The translations under genes and the position numbers were made by a program. From Nitrosopumilus sp. (GTDB taxonomy: Archaea; Thermoproteota; Nitrososphaeria; Nitrososphaerales; Nitrosopumilaceae), in NCBI GenBank assembly GCA_965197525.1, contig OZ240211.1, forward strand, positions 1,536,001-1,600,000: DNA of 64,000 nucleotides. Direction: 5' to 3'. This document shows, piece after piece, positions 8,856-18,394 of this stretch (the stretch's first letter is position 1; every line of letters begins with the position of its first letter). The notes beneath the pieces were generated by a model, which was not told the DNA's origin, searched no databases, and saw only the letters and a list, made by a program, of their open reading frames with translations.

Positions 8856-9388
8856 GGTAATAACTAAAAATCTTTCTCAAAATTAACAAATTGTGTAGTG
8901 CCAAATATCGTAATTTTAGTCAGTGCCAAAATATTCTTTTAACTAGTCTACTATCATATTTTTATCACAATTACTTTTTTTTATCTTTAGTTTGATGATA
9001 TATTGCAGCATCATAATATTTCAGATGATGTGTTGAATCTGTTAGTGATACAGAACCATTTGTATCTCTCTAACTATTTGTTACCATCATGTATTCCAAC
9101 TACATGTTCGTCTAGTAACAAAATTACAATATCTGCCGTCTTTGTATCTAGTCGACAGACAGGTGTCTGAATATTACTTTAACTCATAGTAGTTCTCAGT
9201 ATCGCCTCTTTTTGAATAATTTAGTATAATATTTTGATCTTTCATAATTTTTTTCACTAAATTTTATTTTTTTAACAATTTTTTCTTTCAGATCTCTCTT
9301 TCTTACTATATTTTTTCCCTGTAAAAATTAAGTATTGCTTAGCTTGATATTAGGATTTTTTATCTATACCATAACGGAAGGAAGAACA

Positions 9389-10603
9389 TTGACTAGAATA
9401 TCATTACAGTGCAGAGAATGTAAACGAGAGTACGAATCTACGTTCAAGTATATCTGTGATGACTGTTTTGGTCCCCTAGATGTAAAGTATGACTTTCCAT
9501 CCATTACCAAGGATACGTTTACTGGTCGTGAGAATACATACTGGAGATACTTTGAGTTACTGCCAATAGAGAATAAATCAAATATTATCAGTATTGGCAC
9601 TGGAATGACTCCGTTAACTAAAGCAGACAAACTAGGAGAGCAATTAGGACTGAAAAACCTCTATATCAAAAACGACTCTGTAAATCCTACATTTTCATTT
9701 AAAGATAGACCTGCAGGAGTTGCAGTATCCAAAGCAAAAGAATTTGGTCTACCTGCAGTTGGATGTGCATCAACTGGAAATCTGGCATCAGCTACTGCAG
9801 CTCATGCAGCCAAAGGCAGATTTCCTTGTCACATATTTGCCCCCAGTGATATCGAAATGGCAAAGATTACTCAAGCCTTGTCGTATGGTGGAAATTATGT
9901 AGCAGTTAAAGGAACATATGATGATGCGAATAGAATAGCTGCACAAATTGGTGATAGTCGTGGTTTTGGTATTGTAAATATTAATTTACGCTCTTATTAT
10001 GTTGAGGGCTCGAAAACTTTTTCATACGAGGTAGCCGAACAGCTTGACTGGCAAGTTCCTGATCAGCTGATAGTACCTGTTGGCAGTGGAGCAATGCTAA
10101 ATGCAATATGTAAAGGATTCGAAGAGTTACAAACTGTATCATTACTTGATGATGTTTCAAACATGCACATGATAGCTGCACAGGCACATGGATGCGCACC
10201 AGTGGTTGATGCATTTAAGAAAAATAGCAACGAGGTCATTCCAGTTGAGAATCCTGATACTGTTGCAAAAAGTTTAGCCATTGGTGATCCAGGCGATGGG
10301 AGATATGTTTTAAAGCGTCTAGCTCAATACAATGGTTTTGCTGAAGAATCAAACAATCAGGAGATTCTTGATGCAATACTCTTACTTGCAAAAACTGAGG
10401 GAATATTCACAGAACCTGCAGGTGGCGTAGCAGTGGCTGTTCTTAAAAAAATGGTAGAACAAGGAAAGATTGATTCAAATGAGAAAGTTGTATGCTACAT
10501 TACTGGTAATGGTCTAAAGGCAACTGATTCAATCATGAGCGTTCTAAGTAAACCAACATCGATGAATGCAGATATTAAAGAAATATCGGCGGTGGTTAAT
10601 TAA
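9389..10603 (+). CDS. thrC: Threonine synthase family PLP enzyme
   Basis: N-terminal CxxC...CxxC, NPTFSFKDR (PLP lysine), CASTGN, VPVGSG, IFTEPAGG, ITGNGLK. TTG 9389 preferred over the longer ORF start. Confidence 0.9.
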   Translation: MTRISLQCRECKREYESTFKYICDDCFGPLDVKYDFPSITKDTFTGRENTYWRYFELLPIENKSNIISIGTGMTPLTKADKLGEQLGLKNLYIKNDSVNPTFSFKDRPAGVAVSKAKEFGLPAVGCASTGNLASATAAHAAKGRFPCHIFAPSDIEMAKITQALSYGGNYVAVKGTYDDANRIAAQIGDSRGFGIVNINLRSYYVEGSKTFSYEVAEQLDWQVPDQLIVPVGSGAMLNAICKGFEELQTVSLLDDVSNMHMIAAQAHGCAPVVDAFKKNSNEVIPVENPDTVAKSLAIGDPGDGRYVLKRLAQYNGFAEESNNQEILDAILLLAKTEGIFTEPAGGVAVAVLKKMVEQGKIDSNEKVVCYITGNGLKATDSIMSVLSKPTSMNADIKEISAVVN

Positions 10604-10884
10604 TGGCAAGTATAAAGTTCATAATTCCATCTGTACTAAATCAAGGAAATGGGGAAAAATCACTAGATCTTGAGGCTGATTCAATAACTGATGTGTTCCT
10701 TAAAATTTCTGAGCAGTTAGGAGACGACTTTAAGAGGAGAGTGCTAGAAGGTGATGGAACCACTCCACGTTCACTGATTAATATCTATATCAATGGAAAG
10801 AACGCAAAATTCTCTGACGGTATAAACACTGTTCTTAATTCAGGTGATGAAGTTTACATTCTACCTGCCGTTGCTGGCGGGTAG
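10603..10884 (+). CDS. MoaD/ThiS-family ubiquitin-like sulfur carrier (SAMP-like) ending in free Gly-Gly
   Basis: INIYINGKN...DEVYILPAVAGG followed by TAG; beta-grasp signature; overlaps thrC stop. Confidence 0.9.
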   Translation: MASIKFIIPSVLNQGNGEKSLDLEADSITDVFLKISEQLGDDFKRRVLEGDGTTPRSLINIYINGKNAKFSDGINTVLNSGDEVYILPAVAGG

Positions 10885-11080
10885 CAATACTGATAATAGA
10901 TCTGAAGAATTTGAGACATTGCGTATTGTTGAGATATGTAATTGAGTTGATAAACTTGCATCCATATGCTATGTTTGACGTAGCTGATACAGGTAAGATA
11001 GAAACTGGTGCAGCTGCCAAAAAACTTGCAGATTAAATTCTGATTGTCTTATTGAGATATTGATAGTTTCTGTTAATGAT
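10882..11080 (+). pseudogene. ThiF/MoeB (E1-like adenylyltransferase) remnant, 5' part
   Basis: Frameshifted pieces SNTDNRSEEFETLRIV / VIELINLHPYAMFDVADTGKIETGAAAKKL / LNSDCLIEILIVSVND match the E1 core pattern LRIvDrDvIELSNLHRQ.F...DVG..K..VAAKKL..LNP. Confidence 0.75.
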
Positions 11081-11081
11081 T

Positions 11082-12589
11082 AGAGTTTATGATTAATCGA
11101 CCAGAAAAACAGGATCAGAAAAATTTGCCAAATTTTCTATTAAACTAAACTCGTGCCGTTAAATTTACCTCTTGCAAGTATATGGTAATGGACAAACAAG
11201 TTCTAACTAAACTAGAGGCCAAGATGGCAAAGTTAGAGAAAGAGAATTTGAGACTGAAGACAAAACAGATCAAAGAGAACAAGAAAAAAGAGAAAGAGAT
11301 CTCGAGACTGAAGACACGGCTAGCAAAGGAGGACTCATTATGGAATACGGAGCTTGGACAGATGAGGCATTCATCCGTGCTGCCTACAAGATTGCTTCAC
11401 GCACAAGAAATGTTAGAGTATGTGCTCTCAGATGAGAAGATGATAAACGCACTTACAAGAAACACAAAGGAGATATTTTATGACACGCTTGAGGATCTAA
11501 CCCGAATAATCAAAAAATCAAACGACGCCCCGCACTTTCGGGACGACCATAATAGAAAAGAAGAGTCCGGAAACCAGTGCAAGTTGTATATCCGGCACTT
11601 TCTGCTCATGACCCAGGTAAGAAAGGCACATAACATGGGGCAGGAGTCACTTGGTGCATTCTTTGGTATAGATCAGAGCACGGTATCAAACTATCTCAAG
11701 CTTGCAGACAAGTACGATGATGAGCTATATGTAGTGACACCGGACAACCTTACAAAGTACATTGCCACGATAAAATCTGAAGAAGAGTTCAAAGAGATTG
11801 TACCGGGCAGGGACGGTGGTGAGATTACCATAGACGGCTCACTTGTAGAGACCACGCGTCCTGAAGACGAAGACGAGCAAAAGAGACAGTACTCTGGCAA
11901 GGGCAAAATGTTTGCAATAAACACGGCCATGATGATAAACAGGCAAAATTACATCATTGGAATAAGTGATTCCAGGGAGGGAAGCTGCCATGACCTGACT
12001 GTATTGACCCAAGGGTTGCCAGACTTTGGCAAATGGACAGATCGCATGATAAATGGAAAGCGCATACCATCTGACCACCGCATACGCCTGAATCTGGACG
12101 GGGGATACATGGGAATACAGGACTATCTTCTTGGGGTAACAGCAAAGGTACCACACAAAAAACCCAAGGGAGGAAAGCTTACTGCCACCAAAAAAGCACA
12201 AAACAAGGCACACTCCAAAAGACGTGTTCCTGTAGAGAACGTCTTTGCACATGTGAAAAACTGGAAACGCATGTCCGGGCGATACGACGGTACTGCTGAA
12301 GAGTTCAACGTAGAATTCAACGGCATATGTGGAATGTACAACAAGCGAAAGATGTGGCAGGATGATACCTATCAATACTGGAAGGATAAGATAAAGAGCA
12401 GGATATAGCGTCTGTTCATTTTATAATGCTGCCGAGCCGGTACACATGAAGATTCCAAATGCACATGATTGCGCATGATTTTTTGATTTTACCCGTGTTG
12501 GGCCTTACCCGTGTTGGGCTTTAACCTCCCCATATGTAATGCCAATATTTTTTCGGAAATTTTTTTCCAACCGATTAATCATAAACTCT
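11082..12589 (+). mobile_element. IS5-family (DDE_Tnp_4/ISL2-like) insertion sequence, apparently intact
   Basis: Perfect 19-bp inverted repeat TAGAGTTTATGATTAATCG (11081-11099) / CGATTAATCATAAACTCTA (12572-12590). Flanks read as an ATT/ATT (or TA/TA) duplication. Confidence 0.9.
11182..12408 (+). CDS. IS5-family DDE transposase
   Basis: FGIDQSTVS HTH, IDGSLVETTRP, YSGKGK, HDLTVL, LDGGYMG, KPKGGKLT...NKAHSKRRVPVENVFAHVK. Confidence 0.92.
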   Translation: MVMDKQVLTKLEAKMAKLEKENLRLKTKQIKENKKKEKEISRLKTRLAKEDSLWNTELGQMRHSSVLPTRLLHAQEMLEYVLSDEKMINALTRNTKEIFYDTLEDLTRIIKKSNDAPHFRDDHNRKEESGNQCKLYIRHFLLMTQVRKAHNMGQESLGAFFGIDQSTVSNYLKLADKYDDELYVVTPDNLTKYIATIKSEEEFKEIVPGRDGGEITIDGSLVETTRPEDEDEQKRQYSGKGKMFAINTAMMINRQNYIIGISDSREGSCHDLTVLTQGLPDFGKWTDRMINGKRIPSDHRIRLNLDGGYMGIQDYLLGVTAKVPHKKPKGGKLTATKKAQNKAHSKRRVPVENVFAHVKNWKRMSGRYDGTAEEFNVEFNGICGMYNKRKMWQDDTYQYWKDKIKSRI

Positions 12590-12590
12590 A

Positions 12591-13230
12591 TTATTATATT
12601 TCAAATTGCTAAAGGGTATGATGTACTAGTTGACATTCTTGCTAGTGTAAATGATAGATGCACATTAAACAAAAAAGCATGTATAAAATTTAGAATTTGG
12701 TTTATAACGGGAATTATTGTATGTGTTTTAAAACAAATGTTTATGGTTTTACCGAAATCGAAAATCTGCTATTTTGTATGTTTTCTGAATTATTAGATTA
12801 GAACACAATGCCTAACCTGGTATTGGAGATGCATATCCCTCCACATCTCTATGGTTGAAACATTCAAGTTGCAAAACCAGTTTCAACTATTATCAGAAAA
12901 AATCTGGTCTATCAGAAACGATTCTGTGTATTAATCAAAAAAATCCTGATTTTAACAATATCCACGTATTTTGAATATAGAGTGTCTACTATACAAAATA
13001 GATAACTTGAATGTTATCTCAATGGATGCATTCATTATCAAAGTGTAATGTGGCAAAAGAGCCAGGAGGAACCTGCACATTCGATTGCACCTACTTGCAT
13101 ATTTGGTCTAGAAGCAAGTACTCTCCTGTCATTGGGACGCAATCTATTGGATAAAGGGATTCTAATATCACAATTTGCAGTTCCTATGAAGCACATCAGT
13201 GCTGACGCAGTGACAATATCAAATATCTAA
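12591..13230 (+). pseudogene. ThiF/MoeB (E1-like) remnant, 3' part
   Basis: KGYDVLVDILASVNDRCTLNKKACIKFRIWFITG...VLPKSKICYF matches GcDvviDalDsvnaRy.LN.aC....pfvtG...P..saCy.C. Multiple stops and frameshifts; 3' limit approximate. Confidence 0.7.
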
Positions 13231-13390
13231 AAATTTGAATACTGACATGTCTGAATCTTGTAATTCTTTTTGCTTGTCTTTAGATGTGTGCGCAAATGAA
13301 CATAAACTCTCCTAAATTGTCTTTAGCACTGTTGATTATGTCCAATTTTCCCAAAAGTAATATCTAAGAGAAGATTAACAAATAATTAAA

Positions 13391-14362
13391 ATGAAATTAC
13401 AACTATTATTTTTCATATTTACAGTATTTTTATTCACAAGTACTCCCGCACTATCCTATGCTGAGTTAGAATTATTCACAAACAGCAAAGTCTACTCTCC
13501 TGCCCATAATCTTCAAGTATATGGCAACGGGCTAGATGAAGAAAATATAATTATACGACTATTTGCACCTGACGAATCCATTGCAAAATTTGATCAGATA
13601 ACTACCAACCCTGATGGTTCTTTTAATTTTGATCTGTTAACTTGGCCTGAACCATCTGTAAATTTTCCTTATGGGACATATACCATTGAAGTAATTAGTA
13701 CTGCACAAAACGGTCTGTCTCAAAAAATCGATGTAAAGTTTTCATCAACTACGGATCTCCTTGATGTTCCAGTTGAAAGAAATATCAATACGCTAGTATT
13801 TGCACCAGAGACTGCTGCAATCAATCAACCTTTCAGGGTATTTGTTCAGACAACAAGTGATGGCCTCTTGATTGGAAATATCCCATCTGAATTGTTAGGC
13901 AGCACACACGTTCACTTGCCATCCGGCGTCTCTGTCCCTTTGGCTGTCTCTTTTGAAACTCTTCATCAGGGACTGTATTTTGTTGATTACACTCCGCAAG
14001 AGGAAGGAACCCATGTATTTCATGTAGTTGCGTTCAGTCAAGGAACTGTATCTCATGGGTCAGCAGCTACTAATGTTCTAAGCCAAGATTTAGGCGGGAT
14101 CTCAGAACAGATAATCAACCTAAACTCTATCCTAAAGAATACTTCTGATGAGCTTGGTGTTCTTAAATCTGAAATTGAAGGATTTGACAGTGCCTTGGAG
14201 CAGGCAAGTACCAAGATCGACGAAAGTACTGATAACATTGCTACATCGGTAGAATTCATTAGTGAGGCCTCCTCGCAACTCAACTCATTGCTATTTCCAA
14301 TCATTGCATCAATAGGAATCATAGTCGCACTCCAAATTGCAATCCTTGCTAGAAGAAGATAG
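13391..14362 (+). CDS. Exported, C-terminally membrane-anchored conserved protein with coiled-coil segment
   Basis: Signal peptide, heptad region (ISEQIINLNSILKNTSDEL...), C-terminal TM followed by RRR. Confidence 0.8.
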   Translation: MKLQLLFFIFTVFLFTSTPALSYAELELFTNSKVYSPAHNLQVYGNGLDEENIIIRLFAPDESIAKFDQITTNPDGSFNFDLLTWPEPSVNFPYGTYTIEVISTAQNGLSQKIDVKFSSTTDLLDVPVERNINTLVFAPETAAINQPFRVFVQTTSDGLLIGNIPSELLGSTHVHLPSGVSVPLAVSFETLHQGLYFVDYTPQEEGTHVFHVVAFSQGTVSHGSAATNVLSQDLGGISEQIINLNSILKNTSDELGVLKSEIEGFDSALEQASTKIDESTDNIATSVEFISEASSQLNSLLFPIIASIGIIVALQIAILARRR

Positions 14363-14374
14363 TTATAATAGTGC

Positions 14375-17300
14375 ATGAGAACAAAAATAATTATGCCCAA
14401 AGTGGCGATCCTTCTTGTTATACTTCTCTCTTCAGTTACTGTAACTAGTTCGTATGCATTTCTCTCAGGCGATCTATCTCACATTGATGATAATGTTGGT
14501 ACTTTACATCATCCTTCTCTATTCTTTGATTCAGATATTGTACAAGTTGATTCTGAATTTTTCACTGAAAGTGCTTGGAAAAGATATCTTATCTTTGGGA
14601 ATAGTTTACCAGATAACAACTCTTTGGCAAATAATTCAATATACAGCATTCAATCTCAAGCCGGATTTTTTTATGTATCAGTCCTATCTGAACAGACTGC
14701 ATCTAATTTAGCATCACAAGGATATCATGTCATCGAAGATTTTCCATTGGACTTTCATCAATCAAATGATGATACTCCTGATGCTACAAACATCGGCGAT
14801 ATTACAAGCTCCAAACAATCTCTTCAGAGATATAATTCTACTGGCGACAGCGTTGTAATTGCAATTGTAGATACAGGAGTTGATTTTTCAAATCCTGACA
14901 TCCGACACTCGCTTGCACGTGATGATCTCAACCATCCTATAATGCTTGATCCAGACGGTCAAGGAATAGTCTTGACTAACTCAACTTTTTTTGCATATAT
15001 TGATGAAAACGAGATTATTAGAAACTACACCCAACCTCTCCCTTCACACATGACCTCCTCTGTATATGTAACTAAAGACGGGGTATTCCTTGATCTTGTA
15101 CAAGATGGTAGTGGCAGTGATATTCCAATATACAACTCATTCTTCCCATACTTTGGCGATTCAGCTATCTTTAATGGTACAGTAACTGATGATTTTAAGA
15201 TCGGATCTAGTAATAGGGACTATATTAAATCACAGAGTGGTGTATATCGTCTTGGTATGATATACCAAGGTGAGTTAGCTGGACGATTTGCTGGAGTACA
15301 GGTAGTGCCTGTACTGTTAGTGGACTCTTTTACGCCTGGGGTTTATGATACGCTGATTCCTGATATGAGCACATCTTGGACAGATTATACAAAATCTGAT
15401 TTAGATTTATTTGAAGTACCCGACTATGACTTTGATTTTACTGATGAAAAGCCAATTGTGCTAGGAAGTGGTAACGAATTCCTTGTTTATGATTCGGATG
15501 GTGATGGAAGAGATGATTATAGTGCAGGAACTTTTGGTGCACAAGTTTTGGACGTTTATGGCGTTATTAGACATAATTCAACTGAAATTGATGATCATTT
15601 GCAAGCCATCAATGGGACACTGCTACCTGCACTTGATCCAGATGGCGAATTCTTTGGATTGATGACTGATTTTACTGGTCATGGAACTGCAAGTACTGCA
15701 TCCATTGTTTCTCGTGGTCATGAGACTTATGATATTTATGAGAATTCAACGCAATATTCTATCACCGGTGTAGCCCCCGGAGCACAAATCATACCTGTCA
15801 AAGCATTGTGGTTTGGTGATACTGTTTATGGATGGCTGTGGGCTGCAGGCTTTGATAACGACAGTACCAACTGGACGCTTACAGACAAGCCTAGAGCTGA
15901 TATAATCTCAAATAGCTGGGGCATATCTGGTTTTCCTCTTCTTTTGTCATCCCCGGGAATGGATGTGATATCGTTAATTCTTAGTATGTTATCTACTCCC
16001 TCTTCTTTTGATGATGACTATCCTGGAGTAGTCATAGTCGCTAGTGCTGGAAATTCTGGTCATGGTTATGGAACAATTGGACTGCCTGCTAGCTCTCCTT
16101 TTGGTATCACAGTTGGCGCTACAACTAATCACGTCTTTGTTGGATATGGCCCATTTAAGGATCAGCCGCGATTCGGTAATACTACTACTCACAACAATCA
16201 CATAGTTGACTTTTCTAGTCGCGGTCCTAGCACAATCGGAGATCCCAAGCCGGATCTCGTCAGTCTTGGTGCTTTTGGATTTGTTCCAACAAATGTTTTG
16301 AGGGCTTCGGCGGATTCAGACGATGAAGCGTTTTCTTTGTATGGGGGTACTAGCATGTCAGCACCAATCGTTTCAGGCAGTGCGGCGGTATTAATTGAAG
16401 CTATGAAAAAAGAATTCATAGATTATGATCCATTTTTGATTAAAAATATCCTTACATCTACTGCTACTGATCTGGGCAACGATCCTCTGGCACAGGGATC
16501 CGGTTTGGTAAATGTAGAATCTGCCTTAAACTATGTTCACGGTGATGACGGTGTGTTTATAGTGTATAATGATGGTTCTTATGATAATCTTAAAAATGTC
16601 ATGGATCCCGCAATTGCAAGTATAAATTCCACTGCAATAGGTTTTGAGAGTTTTAATCTTCCCACACGATCATTTCCAATGACTAGCTGGTTTGCAGGAC
16701 AGCTGCATCCTGGAGATAGAACCACAACTAGTTTCACGATTGATAATCTTACAAACGATACTCTTTCTGTTGATATCAAACCACAAATTTTATCCATGAT
16801 TGCGCAAAAACAATTCAATGGAACTACAACTCCGCACCAGCAAGATTCTATACTGAATATGACTGATACGTTTATTCCTAATTACGTAAAGTTATCTGAC
16901 GTTCGTATACAAGACAAGTTGAGTGATTTTTTTAATGAAGACGATCCTATTCCTGATGATTCGTCATTAATGGTATTAAATGTAAATTTCTTATTTGATG
17001 ATTTTATGAATAGTACCGCTGATGTCTATGCTGATGATTTCAAAATTGCGTCGTTATATGTATATGATTGGATGGATAACAATAACGACACAAAAGTCAC
17101 AAGTAACGAACTATCTATGGTGAATCGAGCCGGTTCATGGGGAACCGTTCAGGAATTGAGAGTCTCTGATCCTAACGAGCAATTCAACGGCGTGCCTCTA
17201 GTGGGTATTTATCCGGTGCCTACAAGACAGTCATACTGGATAGGCGATACGTCACAAAATTCCACATCCTTTGATTATACCATCTCTGCTAGTTATTACA

Positions 17301-18394
17301 AGAAAGAACCGTGGCCTCTTGTGTGGTCTGAATCAGATACCGTCACTGTTCCTTCCCAAGATGCATCTGTAGTTGATGTAACTATTGTTACACCGCCGGA
17401 TATTTCAACTGGAATATATCAAGGATTTCTAACATTTGAAGGTATTACACATACTGTAAACGCTCCCGTGTCCTTTGTAGTCAAAGAACCCATATCTGAA
17501 AATGATTCTCTAGTTGTTTTTGATGGAGTCTCAAGTAGCGACCTACTTTATGGAAATGGGTATACCAAAGGTGCATTTGATATGGGTGGTAGATATATGG
17601 CAGGTGATTGGCGGCACTACTATTTTGATATACAAGACGAATCTATTAATTCCGCAGCTATTGAGCTTTCGTGGGATAGTGATGATACCAATCTCGCTGT
17701 GTTTGCAATAGATCCTACAGGCCAGATAATTCAGACCAATGTTCCTTCTGGCGTGTTTGGCCATTTCTCTAATTGGATATCTCTTGATTGGTTGGGCAGA
17801 TCTTTCTTTAGTGGGGGCGGAGGTTTTTATCCGGTAAAGAACAAGGATGATACATCAACGGTACTTTTTGTACCGATTAATCAAACAGGAACTTATACAC
17901 TGTTAACACATTCAACTTTGTTTGGCGGCGTATCCACTACGGAACCTATTTCATTGGCAGCTAAATTTACAAATATTTCAAGCGAGGCGGTTGCAGAATT
18001 AATTCTTAGTGATGATAATGACGACAGTAGGGACAACGTATCGAAGAATGATTCTGTTGATATGTCTGACGATGGTACTGCCGTCTTGGAACCTACTGCA
18101 GATTCCAATGATGAACGAGGAACAACTACAGGAACATCCGGTTTGGTACACGATAAAGATACTGATCCATTACAAGATAACAATAACGCATCAAATACAA
18201 TAAAAGCCAAAGAGGTTAATCCTGATGACAGTCTTGTATCGCCTGCTGCCACATCTGATCTATCTGTTGAGGCAATGATTGCAATTGGTGCAAGCATCGG
18301 TGTAGGTATAGGAGTTGGTATAGGCATAGTATTTACCGCTAGACGAAGATCTACTCCCGATAGCACAACGACGTCACAAGCAGTATCATTTTAA
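14375..18394 (+). CDS. S8 (subtilisin-like) serine protease, surface-anchored
   Basis: Signal peptide; catalytic D (IVDTGVD), H (GHGTAS), N (SAGNSG), S (GGTSMSAP); acidic linker and C-terminal GxGxG TM anchor. Confidence 0.92.
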   Translation: MRTKIIMPKVAILLVILLSSVTVTSSYAFLSGDLSHIDDNVGTLHHPSLFFDSDIVQVDSEFFTESAWKRYLIFGNSLPDNNSLANNSIYSIQSQAGFFYVSVLSEQTASNLASQGYHVIEDFPLDFHQSNDDTPDATNIGDITSSKQSLQRYNSTGDSVVIAIVDTGVDFSNPDIRHSLARDDLNHPIMLDPDGQGIVLTNSTFFAYIDENEIIRNYTQPLPSHMTSSVYVTKDGVFLDLVQDGSGSDIPIYNSFFPYFGDSAIFNGTVTDDFKIGSSNRDYIKSQSGVYRLGMIYQGELAGRFAGVQVVPVLLVDSFTPGVYDTLIPDMSTSWTDYTKSDLDLFEVPDYDFDFTDEKPIVLGSGNEFLVYDSDGDGRDDYSAGTFGAQVLDVYGVIRHNSTEIDDHLQAINGTLLPALDPDGEFFGLMTDFTGHGTASTASIVSRGHETYDIYENSTQYSITGVAPGAQIIPVKALWFGDTVYGWLWAAGFDNDSTNWTLTDKPRADIISNSWGISGFPLLLSSPGMDVISLILSMLSTPSSFDDDYPGVVIVASAGNSGHGYGTIGLPASSPFGITVGATTNHVFVGYGPFKDQPRFGNTTTHNNHIVDFSSRGPSTIGDPKPDLVSLGAFGFVPTNVLRASADSDDEAFSLYGGTSMSAPIVSGSAAVLIEAMKKEFIDYDPFLIKNILTSTATDLGNDPLAQGSGLVNVESALNYVHGDDGVFIVYNDGSYDNLKNVMDPAIASINSTAIGFESFNLPTRSFPMTSWFAGQLHPGDRTTTSFTIDNLTNDTLSVDIKPQILSMIAQKQFNGTTTPHQQDSILNMTDTFIPNYVKLSDVRIQDKLSDFFNEDDPIPDDSSLMVLNVNFLFDDFMNSTADVYADDFKIASLYVYDWMDNNNDTKVTSNELSMVNRAGSWGTVQELRVSDPNEQFNGVPLVGIYPVPTRQSYWIGDTSQNSTSFDYTISASYYKKEPWPLVWSESDTVTVPSQDASVVDVTIVTPPDISTGIYQGFLTFEGITHTVNAPVSFVVKEPISENDSLVVFDGVSSSDLLYGNGYTKGAFDMGGRYMAGDWRHYYFDIQDESINSAAIELSWDSDDTNLAVFAIDPTGQIIQTNVPSGVFGHFSNWISLDWLGRSFFSGGGGFYPVKNKDDTSTVLFVPINQTGTYTLLTHSTLFGGVSTTEPISLAAKFTNISSEAVAELILSDDNDDSRDNVSKNDSVDMSDDGTAVLEPTADSNDERGTTTGTSGLVHDKDTDPLQDNNNASNTIKAKEVNPDDSLVSPAATSDLSVEAMIAIGASIGVGIGVGIGIVFTARRRSTPDSTTTSQAVSF

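Follow-up and report, generated by a model that had tools for sequence, protein, structure and literature searches.

The locus described here raises the question of what becomes of a ubiquitin-like (Ubl) sulfur carrier when the E1 enzyme encoded directly behind it is dead. It lies in a 64,000-nt stretch of DNA from Nitrosopumilus sp. (the window; its genome is labelled G000). From the letters of this stretch an earlier note had proposed that one extra G split a Ubl-E1 fusion, leaving a carrier with a ready-made Gly-Gly terminus beside a decayed E1. The features, in window coordinates, are as follows.

9335..10603, + strand: ThrC-like PLP enzyme with an N-terminal Cys4 ribbon (maximal ORF; Pfam PALP, 231 bits)
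10603..10884, + strand: stand-alone MoaD/ThiS-family Ubl sulfur carrier, 93 aa (Pfam ThiS, 36 bits; TAG at 10882-10884)
10885..11081, + strand: E1 (ThiF/MoeB-type) pseudogene, left part (tblastn HSPs, DNA alignment, tally of indels and stops)
11079..11081, no strand: left copy of the target-site duplication, ATT (comparison of IS copies; empty site in L083 and L084)
11082..12589, + strand: IS element, 1508 bp (inverted repeats, Pfam DDE_Tnp_4, second copy, empty site)
11182-12408: DDE_Tnp_4 transposase ORF of the IS element (Pfam, 57.5 bits)
12590..12592, no strand: right copy of the target-site duplication, ATT (comparison of IS copies; empty site)
12593..13300, + strand: E1 pseudogene, right part (tblastn HSPs, DNA alignment; end approximate)

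The carrier gene is intact, as the earlier note had read it. Its ATG overlaps the TAA stop of the ThrC-like gene (TAATG), and its 3' end, GCT GGC GGG TAG, encodes a protein that finishes in AVAGG, the C-terminal Gly-Gly available for adenylation, with the stop immediately after. The match to Pfam ThiS (PF02597; 35.5 bits in the genome scan) is well above the cut-off of 22.5, while SAMP1 (NCBIfam NF041918, 41.6 bits, curated cut-off 60) and archaeal MoaD (moaD_arch, TIGR01687, 42.7 bits, curated cut-off 49.5) give scores under threshold. In an alignment of 15 stand-alone and fused Ubl sequences, the carrier keeps 49 of 49 invariant columns. The dN/dS analysis that the earlier note had called for gave an omega of 0.047 for the Ubl against a Tara relative (dS ~0.62), and 0.036 for the ThrC-like gene, both lineages being without the fused E1. 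Judged by these substitution patterns, strong purifying selection acts on the Ubl and on the adjacent ThrC-like gene.

Among 151 genus representatives the closest to G000 is G117 (79% nucleotide identity over the Ubl), and closer relatives were drawn from metagenome contigs. The 90%-identity protein cluster of the Ubl has five members from independent assemblies, all of 93 aa, and in the five assemblies the stop follows straight after the Gly-Gly (TAG in four, TAA in one). One of these contigs, L083, is 99.6% identical and carries the same GGGTAG junction and the same E1 decay; L084 likewise has this junction and a decayed E1, and L081, L082 and L085 also stop after the diglycine. In L084 the Ubl is 94.3% identical with 0 gap columns, compared with 88.5% and 37 gap columns for the downstream DNA. 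The Gly-Gly stop has been kept in five lineages while the DNA behind it diverged or was deleted.

The neighbouring E1 is dead, and its remnants continue past the IS element as the earlier note had claimed. Remnants of the Ubl-fused ThiF/MoeB type span 10885 to about 13300: tblastn with an intact congener fusion recovers fusion residues 156-205 on the left of the IS and 203-332 on its right, with changes of frame and stops, and a MAFFT DNA alignment carries the homology on to about 13230-13300. The left part consists of a 35-nt linker remnant followed by homologs of fusion residues ~150-206, and the right part corresponds to residues ~207-430, that is, the rest of the adenylation domain, the CxxC motifs and the C-terminal TBP-like domain. 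Only 35 nt separate the GG from the first secure E1 homology (TLRIV), versus about 169 nt in orthologs; this net loss of ~134 nt corresponds to RYSRQ...GTGGLG, so that the ATP-binding GTGGLG loop is gone. Both CxxC zinc motifs are destroyed, and at least 13 frameshifting indels and 8 stops were counted. The remnant has neither a continuous ORF nor a GxGxxG loop (PF00899: 12.2 bits, below the 28.1 cut-off), and carrier and E1 do not share one reading frame at this locus. In the right part, identity at the three codon positions is 63/65/55%, compared with 87/92/52% for an intact pair and with 84/89/61% for the Ubl against G117. This contrast with the selected Ubl indicates that the E1 remnant is evolving neutrally and has been a pseudogene for a long time.

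The insertion within the remnant has the full set of IS5/Harbinger-type marks: a transposase matching DDE_Tnp_4/DDE_Tnp_1 (Pfam), perfect terminal inverted repeats of ~19 bp, a 3-bp target-site duplication (ATT), a further copy and an empty site. The second, near-identical copy lies at G000:C1:406953-408460, flanked by TTT. The insertion point falls in E1 coding region, in the codons for VSVND|Y. Both L083 and L084 have a single ATT at this point and no IS, and carry all the other lesions. With the same junction and decay around an empty site in the 99.6% identical L083, the insertion is, on sequence comparison, recent and into DNA that was already dead.

The single-ORF fusion cited in the earlier note, with AVAGG followed by SEEL, proved real in genomes of the same genus: 14 of the 17 sampled congeners that have the Ubl encode one ORF of ~444 aa with the junction AVAGG-S(E/D)(E/D)L...RxSRQ. 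The nearest species-level relative, G117, is fused like most congeners, and a ThrC tree places G000 as its sister (support 99/100), in agreement with HisF identities. Synteny, the E1 remnants and this sister species support descent of the Ubl gene from a Ubl-E1 fusion. Separate orthologs as the normal state, which the earlier note had named as evidence against its account, were found in other families of the order, where Ubl and E1 are separate adjacent genes, but not in the genus, where orthologs are mostly fused. The fission thus undoes a fusion that was itself derived. No description of such a Ubl-E1 fission turned up in a literature search.

How the fusion broke is less clear. The earlier note has one G inserted in GGC GGT AGC to give GGC GGG TAG C, with E1 decay following. 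In its favour, deletion of one G opens a +1 frame reading AGG-SNTDNRSEEFETLRIVEICN and ending in TLRIV (GTLRIV in the fusion), and the last Gly codon is GGT in relatives. The proposed cause fares worse, as the base concerned is a variable third codon position, the codons before TAG or TAA in the five lineages of the stop-sharing clade being GGG, GGG, GGG, GGC and GGT. The ACTGATA linker motif lies 7 nt after the GG in the window, but its possible counterpart in L085, a short match of 8 of 9 bases, lies 12 nt after the GG and in frame 0. Furthermore, the ~134-nt loss by itself gives a +1 offset, the corresponding stop of G018 is an in-frame one, with DRFSRQ still readable in the same frame after it, and the presence of at least 13 further frameshifts hides which lesion came first. 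We therefore consider insertion of one G an unlikely origin, one possibility among several. A sequencing or assembly error in a gene that is really fused might be suspected from the G-run beside the stop and the single-contig assembly, and was a weakness that the earlier note itself had raised. Five independent assemblies with a stop after the Gly-Gly, two of them (L083 and L084) with the same junction and a decayed E1, and a decay that comprises a ~134-nt deletion, frameshifts and stops reduce its probability to practically nil. The idea that the IS inactivated the E1 and that the other lesions came later has in its favour the position of the element within E1 coding region, but is already refuted by the two contigs with every other lesion and an empty site; the two IS copies, moreover, are only one indel apart in 1.5 kb.

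Activation of the carrier would need another E1, as the earlier note had stated, and the genome search that it proposed found exactly one. The ORF at G000:C1:105402-106445 is the sole ThiF match over the cut-off in G000 (PF00899, 242.5 bits). It is intact and encodes 348 aa; the genome's own called product, seen in a protein homology search, is shorter at 330 aa. Both the GxGxxG loop and a pair of CxxC motifs are present (invariant residues G35/G37/G38/G40, C168/C171 and C241/C244). This stand-alone E1 shares 50% identity with the fused type, as well as its C-terminal domain. The predicted complex of the Ubl with it scored 0.62, compared with 0.00 for the best of 3 controls, and passes a mark that 58 of 80 solved complexes, but just 2 of 110 mismatched pairs, attain. 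At least 90% of the contacts recur between the runs, with a partner pLDDT of 81 or more, and the Ubl tail (residues 89-93) is placed against the GxGxxG loop of the E1 (residues 35-40). Solved structures of MoeB-MoaD-type complexes exist, so this result may mirror no more than likeness to them. Elimination, together with a model similar to complexes already solved, leads us to infer that the stand-alone E1 activates the Ubl in trans.

The ThrC-like gene matches the NCBIfam thrC models and adjoins the Ubl in all relatives; a second ThrC homolog lies at G000:C1:270997. A ThrC homolog beside a carrier gene, together with a distinct second ThrC homolog, is the gene layout of the MetM/MetO thiocarboxylate homocysteine pathway, which is ascribed to Streptomyces by Hasebe et al. 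2024 as cited by GapMind 2026 (10.1101/2024.10.14.618325). G000 has no match to the HcyBio family and no convincing Cys_Met_Meta_PP enzyme. A PDB sequence search with the ThrC-like protein returned plain threonine synthases only and no MetM-type entry, and Iyer et al. 2006 do not mention threonine synthase in the Ubl-E1 context. From its gene context, the ThrC-like enzyme is probably a MetM-like, thiocarboxylate-dependent homocysteine synthase. The search for JAMM proteases suggested in the earlier note showed that two JAMM genes are retained in the genome; nothing in their neighbourhoods (a cupredoxin protein and a coiled-coil protein) ties them to this locus. That the carrier needs no processing protease is plausible for its maturation, but does not extend further: both JAMM genes are kept, and a Mec hydrolase is a listed step of the MetO pathway in the GapMind account (10.1101/2024.10.14.618325).

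Two other fates of the carrier have to be weighed. The earlier note had left room for sulfur transfer being lost, in which case the Ubl would look intact only for being short. The dedicated E1 is indeed dead, and 43 of the 151 genus genomes are without any such E1, showing that the module is not universally needed. However, the Ubl and the ThrC-like gene show omega values of about 0.04-0.05 between two lineages that lack the fused E1, every invariant Ubl residue is retained, and the Gly-Gly stop is preserved in five lineages over downstream DNA that diverges or is deleted. These observations speak against such a loss, and we consider loss of the whole pathway very improbable. Alternatively, the freed Ubl could serve mainly as a protein modifier, by SAMP-like conjugation, and not as sulfur carrier for the ThrC-like enzyme. 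Its free Gly-Gly end, a weak similarity to SAMP1 and the two JAMM genes would fit this role, but both the SAMP1 and moaD_arch scores are sub-threshold, no E2- or E3-like context was seen, and a metabolic partnership is suggested by the stop/start overlap and by the conservation of the gene pair throughout the order; a modifier role is accordingly quite unlikely, if less so than loss of the pathway.

We consider it likely that the locus records an old fission of the Ubl-E1 fusion, displacement of the fused E1 by a paralog, and a carrier that feeds a MetM/MetO-like thiocarboxylate pathway. The fusion typical of Nitrosopumilus-type archaea would have split so that the Ubl ends exactly at the Gly-Gly, a terminus then kept by selection. 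With a stand-alone E1 present the fused E1 would have been dispensable and would have decayed by loss of its ATP-binding loop and a build-up of frameshifts and stops, the IS arriving lately. The free Ubl would be adenylated and thiocarboxylated in trans by the genome's only intact E1 and would hand its sulfur to the translationally coupled upstream ThrC-like enzyme, which in turn would convert O-phosphohomoserine to homocysteine. The high-GC sister clade would have undergone the same E1 replacement independently. This is a tidy gene fission and conventional biology, not a new kind of system.

Closest among known systems are the thaumarchaeal Ubl-E1-TBP fusion proteins that Makarova & Koonin 2010 (PMC2948915) pointed out. 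The locus and the upstream ThrC-like gene are shared, the Ubl is 65-73% identical to sampled fused Ubls, and the pseudogene keeps remnants of the E1 core and C-terminal domain; here, by contrast, the 93-aa Ubl has a gene of its own that ends at Gly-Gly, the adjoining E1 is a pseudogene and the E1 activity would come from an unlinked paralog. As in MetM/MetO, a threonine-synthase homolog is paired with a small carrier, the E1-type sulfur ligase is encoded elsewhere and a JAMM/Mec-type hydrolase is in the genome. This likeness is one of gene context, and the lineage here is archaeal, the carrier was ancestrally fused to E1, and the E1 was not seen to carry a rhodanese domain. MoaD-MoeB, ThiS-ThiF and SAMP-UbaA share the beta-grasp Ubl with C-terminal Gly-Gly, an E1 with GxGxxG and two CxxC motifs and the Ubl tail at the nucleotide loop, where the present model places it. 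They differ in context, which here is a ThrC-like enzyme and not Moco, thiamine or tRNA-thiolation genes, and scores against the SAMP1, moaD_arch, UbaA and MoeB equivalog models are below curated cut-offs. In the CysO-CysM-Mec+ cysteine pathway of Mycobacterium, a PLP enzyme likewise uses a Ubl thiocarboxylate as sulfide donor and a JAMM protease releases the amino acid, but the PLP family member is CysM, not ThrC-like, and the product is different.

Reversal of the fusion exactly at the diglycine could be recurrent and maintained by selection, a suggestion we make tentatively and would put at somewhat under an even chance. Three separately placed stops are seen, in the clade under study, in G018 and in G002/G151, only in genomes with the divergent stand-alone E1 paralog, and in the clade under study the stop has been kept across dS ~0.6 with everything downstream decayed. 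Were this so, the locus would be a natural experiment with three lessons: a fused Ubl has to be set free before it functions, a 50%-diverged E1 is able to act on it in trans, and a mature end that needs no protease gains an advantage after the fusion has broken. The locus itself shows, through natural intermediates, how a fused carrier-activator goes back to two separate functions, the carrier being kept, the cis E1 abandoned and an unlinked paralog retained. The locus also argues that the Ubl part of Nitrosopumilaceae fusions, of which there are thousands in metagenomes, acts as a free Gly-Gly protein, and it offers the 93-aa Ubl and 348-aa E1 as a candidate pair. For annotation, the "threonine synthase" beside the Ubl is probably homocysteine-forming, the GG stop is genuine and about 1 kb downstream is pseudogene.

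The stand-alone E1s group together with support of 99/97, and the fused E1s of the genus are their sister group. This type is otherwise found mainly in the high-GC sister clade, whose fused E1 was lost independently; G002, G018 and G151 have it together with a locus that holds the Ubl only, and typical fusion genomes give a single E1 match. The G117 assembly is 83% complete, which limits any reading of stand-alone E1 absence there. Either an ancient paralogy followed by reciprocal loss or an early transfer out of the high-GC clade could account for the gene. G000 is similarly diverged from G002 and G018 in HisF (70-72%) and in the stand-alone E1 (66-71%), whereas the ThrC tree puts G000 among fusion-bearing species. 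Synteny around the stand-alone E1, which has FEN-1 as neighbour, breaks down in G002, G151, G018 and G146. The GC content of the stand-alone E1 is 43% (GC3 34%), compared with 39.6% for the genome and a GC3 of 27-30% for the ThrC-like and Ubl genes, a mild elevation that fits transfer and vertical descent alike.

The complete genome of this Nitrosopumilus sp. (G000; 2.21 Mb, 39.6% GC; the window is C1:1536001-1600000) encodes a 93-residue ubiquitin-like sulfur carrier (Ubl) of the MoaD/ThiS type beside the decayed remains of a ThiF/MoeB-type activating enzyme (E1). The locus is a clean gene fission with displacement by a paralog, observed twice in the genus, and is not a new kind of system; for the locus as a whole, the earlier note was right in its observation and in most of its interpretation. 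Its features are as follows.

Upstream of the ThrC-like gene: histidine operon.
9335-10603: ThrC-like PLP enzyme (Pfam PALP; NCBIfam thrC models).
10603-10884: Ubl ORF of 93 aa (Pfam ThiS above cut-off), ending in AVAGG with TAG immediately after.
Left of the insertion element: E1 remnant, fusion residues 156-205 (tblastn).
11082-12589: insertion element (IS) of 1508 bp with ~19-bp perfect inverted ends and a 408-aa DDE_Tnp_4 transposase at 11182-12408.
Right of the insertion element: E1 remnants, fusion residues 203-269, 266-308 (with stops) and 308-332 (tblastn).
From 13391: conserved secreted-protein gene, the next long ORF past the E1 remnant apart from the transposase.

The TAA stop of the ThrC-like gene overlaps the ATG of the Ubl, and from the Ubl to 13391 there is no long ORF other than the transposase. 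Downstream of the locus, 13391-18394 encodes a 323-aa secreted protein (weak Filamin-repeat match) and a 1339-aa S8 peptidase, an order also seen in L081, L083 and L084 (metagenome contigs of close relatives).

With an intact congener fusion as the tblastn query, the E1 remnants appear in shifting frames, and when the DNA is aligned (MAFFT) to 15 orthologous fusion genes the homology extends to ~13230-13300. Projection on the ortholog frame reveals at least 13 frameshifting indels, 8 stops and a net loss of ~134 nt between the Gly-Gly and 'TLRIV', with the RYSRQ and GTGGLG motifs gone; both CxxC motifs are destroyed, and Pfam ThiF reaches only 12.2 bits. The E1 beside the Ubl is indeed dead, its remnants continuing past the IS, as had been proposed. 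The Ubl, by comparison, retains 49 of the 49 columns that are invariant across 15 stand-alone and fused Ubl sequences. Its codon-position identity to G117, the nearest species-level relative, is 84/89/61%, the signature of purifying selection, and that of the E1 remnant is 63/65/55% as against 87/92/52% between two intact orthologs, so the E1 has drifted neutrally for long.

The Ubl in G000 descends from a Ubl-E1 fusion. The single fusion with AVAGG that the note had described is present, as one open frame of ~444 aa, in 14 of the 17 same-genus genomes with a Ubl in our first sample, where it reads ...LPAVAGG-S(E/D)(E/D)LS.KELD+FSRQVMLEE...GTGGLG; of 4051 matching public proteins, the fused architecture (PF02597+PF00899) is dominant among the matches listed, and 'Ubl-E1-TBP in Thaumarchaeota' was noted in 2010 by Makarova and Koonin (PMC2948915). 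Orthologs are normally separate in other families of the order, but not within the genus: in those families Ubl and E1 are neighbouring genes, the first of which stops at or just past the Gly-Gly (for example GGA TAG AAG ATG in G037), so that the fusion is derived and the state in G000 a reversal. The ThrC-like protein tree places G000 as sister to the fusion-bearing G117 (99/100), a placement that HisF identity fits (87% to G117, 83% to G012, 70-72% to G002 and G018).

In the complete 1.64-Mb congener G043 (G043:C1:1405500-1410000) the fusion is broken by a single frameshift at ~residue 190, with 87% identity on either side; the genome yielded no other E1, and the break reflects either a sequencing error or a gene only just inactivated. 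G146, a high-GC genome (62-64% GC at the loci concerned, which include G146:C2:2160845-2161921), carries the fusion locus twice as well as a stand-alone E1; behind the Gly-Gly of the fusions a long linker rich in Gly, Ser and Ala has been inserted, and an extended linker follows the Gly-Gly in G135 too.

The split is old and common to a small clade. Clustering at 90% identity groups the Ubl into a set of five proteins, each of 93 aa and from independent assemblies. The ENA metagenome contig L083 (99.6% identity over 1287 aligned bases) shares GGCGGGTAG and the lesions with the window, its IS site being empty with a single ATT, and L084 (Ubl 94.3% nucleotide identity; DNA downstream 88.5% with 37 gap columns) has the same junction and pseudogene without the IS. 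In L085 and the Tara contigs L081/L082 the Ubl, at ~88% nucleotide identity, ends GGC TAG and GGT TAA, respectively; L085 retains no more than a short, doubtful stretch resembling the linker, and no E1 DNA is recognisable in L081/L082. In place of the remnant, L081 has ~415 nt of unrelated DNA with a higher GC content; a 45-aa ORF called at L081:5282-5419 overlaps the Ubl stop with its ATG (TAATGA) and has no family match on record. A stop directly after the Gly-Gly in five independent assemblies rules out an assembly error as the source of the stop and places it before the radiation of this small clade.

The same relatives, with the lesions but without the IS (L083, L084), exclude the element as the cause of E1 death; it is a late bystander. 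It is also young, as its second genomic copy (G000:C1:406953-408460) differs by one indel; the target site duplications are 3 bp at the two copies (ATT and TTT). The element carries a 16-nt tandem duplication (12489-12520), and G000:C1:574979-575046 contains two short pieces of it.

A one-base insertion at the Gly93/Ser94 boundary, the proposed 'one extra G', may have split the fusion, and deleting one G does open a +1 frame continuous with secure E1 homology. However, the base in question is G/G/G/C/T across five lineages, like a synonymous third position, with TAG or TAA always next, and the ~134-nt net loss alone yields the +1 offset. The ACTGATA linker motif, 7 nt past the GG in the window, has a possible counterpart in L085 (8/9 bases) 12 nt past the GG in frame 0, and the G018 counterpart of the stop lies in frame, where DRFSRQ can still be read after it. 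The insertion has no more support than a TCR-to-TAR nonsense change with later indels; the frame restoration stands, but not the extra G as the established cause.

Activation, it had been argued, would need another E1, and the genome search found exactly one ThiF-family gene over cut-off, at C1:105402-106445: an intact 348-aa ORF that retains the nucleotide loop and the two CxxC motifs and matches fused E1s at 50% identity from end to end, C-terminal domain included. A 370-aa transposase-like ORF lies ~4.5 kb away (G000:C1:110901-112013). The stand-alone proteins group as one clade (99/97) in the E1 tree, sister to the fused E1s of the genus. Among 151 genus genomes the type occurs at 66-71% identity only in G002, G018 and G151, where the locus is Ubl-only; more distant ones (56-60%) occur in G146 and G097, both also fusion-bearing, and the one E1 match of typical fusion genomes is the fusion. 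In the ThrC tree G146, G018, G002 and G151 form a clade apart from G000 and G117, so the fused E1 was lost at least twice. Stops in this high-GC clade differ (GG-TAG in G018; GGS(G/D)LS-stop in G002 and G151).

When the Ubl was modelled in complex with the stand-alone E1, the score was 0.62 and the best of 3 controls scored 0.00; 58 of 80 solved complexes reach that mark, as do 2 of 110 mismatched pairs. The model thereby passes, which denotes likeness and no proof of binding, since solved structures exist for MoeB-MoaD-type complexes. Runs share at least 90% of their contacts, the partner has a pLDDT of at least 81, and the Ubl tail is predicted to sit at the E1 GxGxxG loop. The paralog very likely serves the freed Ubl. 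The only other ThiS-family match in G000, in a 259-aa frame, is probably a Cgi121-Ubl fusion, as described for Thaumarchaea (PMC2948915). Across the genus, 43 of 151 genomes gave no E1 of either type (E<=1e-20). These include 23 of the 98 high-quality genomes, several at 96-99% completeness; a Ubl match was missing from most of the 43 as well, so the ThrC-like/Ubl-E1 module looks accessory.

The alternative that sulfur transfer is being lost is contradicted by the dN/dS check: omega is 0.047 for the Ubl and 0.036 for the ThrC-like gene (G000 versus the Tara lineage, neither of which has a fused E1, dS ~0.62), and the invariant Ubl columns are kept. Selection on the sulfur-carrier pathway is strong. 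A canonical homocysteine synthase was not found in the G000 genome, which has no HcyBio (PF01837) match and only marginal Cys_Met_Meta_PP (PF01053) matches (<=27 bits). A thiocarboxylate route from O-phosphohomoserine to homocysteine, now in GapMind, is described with a ThrC-like MetM, a carrier MetO, an E1-type ligase and a Mec hydrolase (10.1101/2024.10.14.618325). Gene context suggests that the locus would belong to a route of this type: the Ubl gene forms a translationally coupled pair with a ThrC homolog, a second ThrC homolog lies elsewhere, and alongside the E1 the suggested protease search found two JAMM genes.
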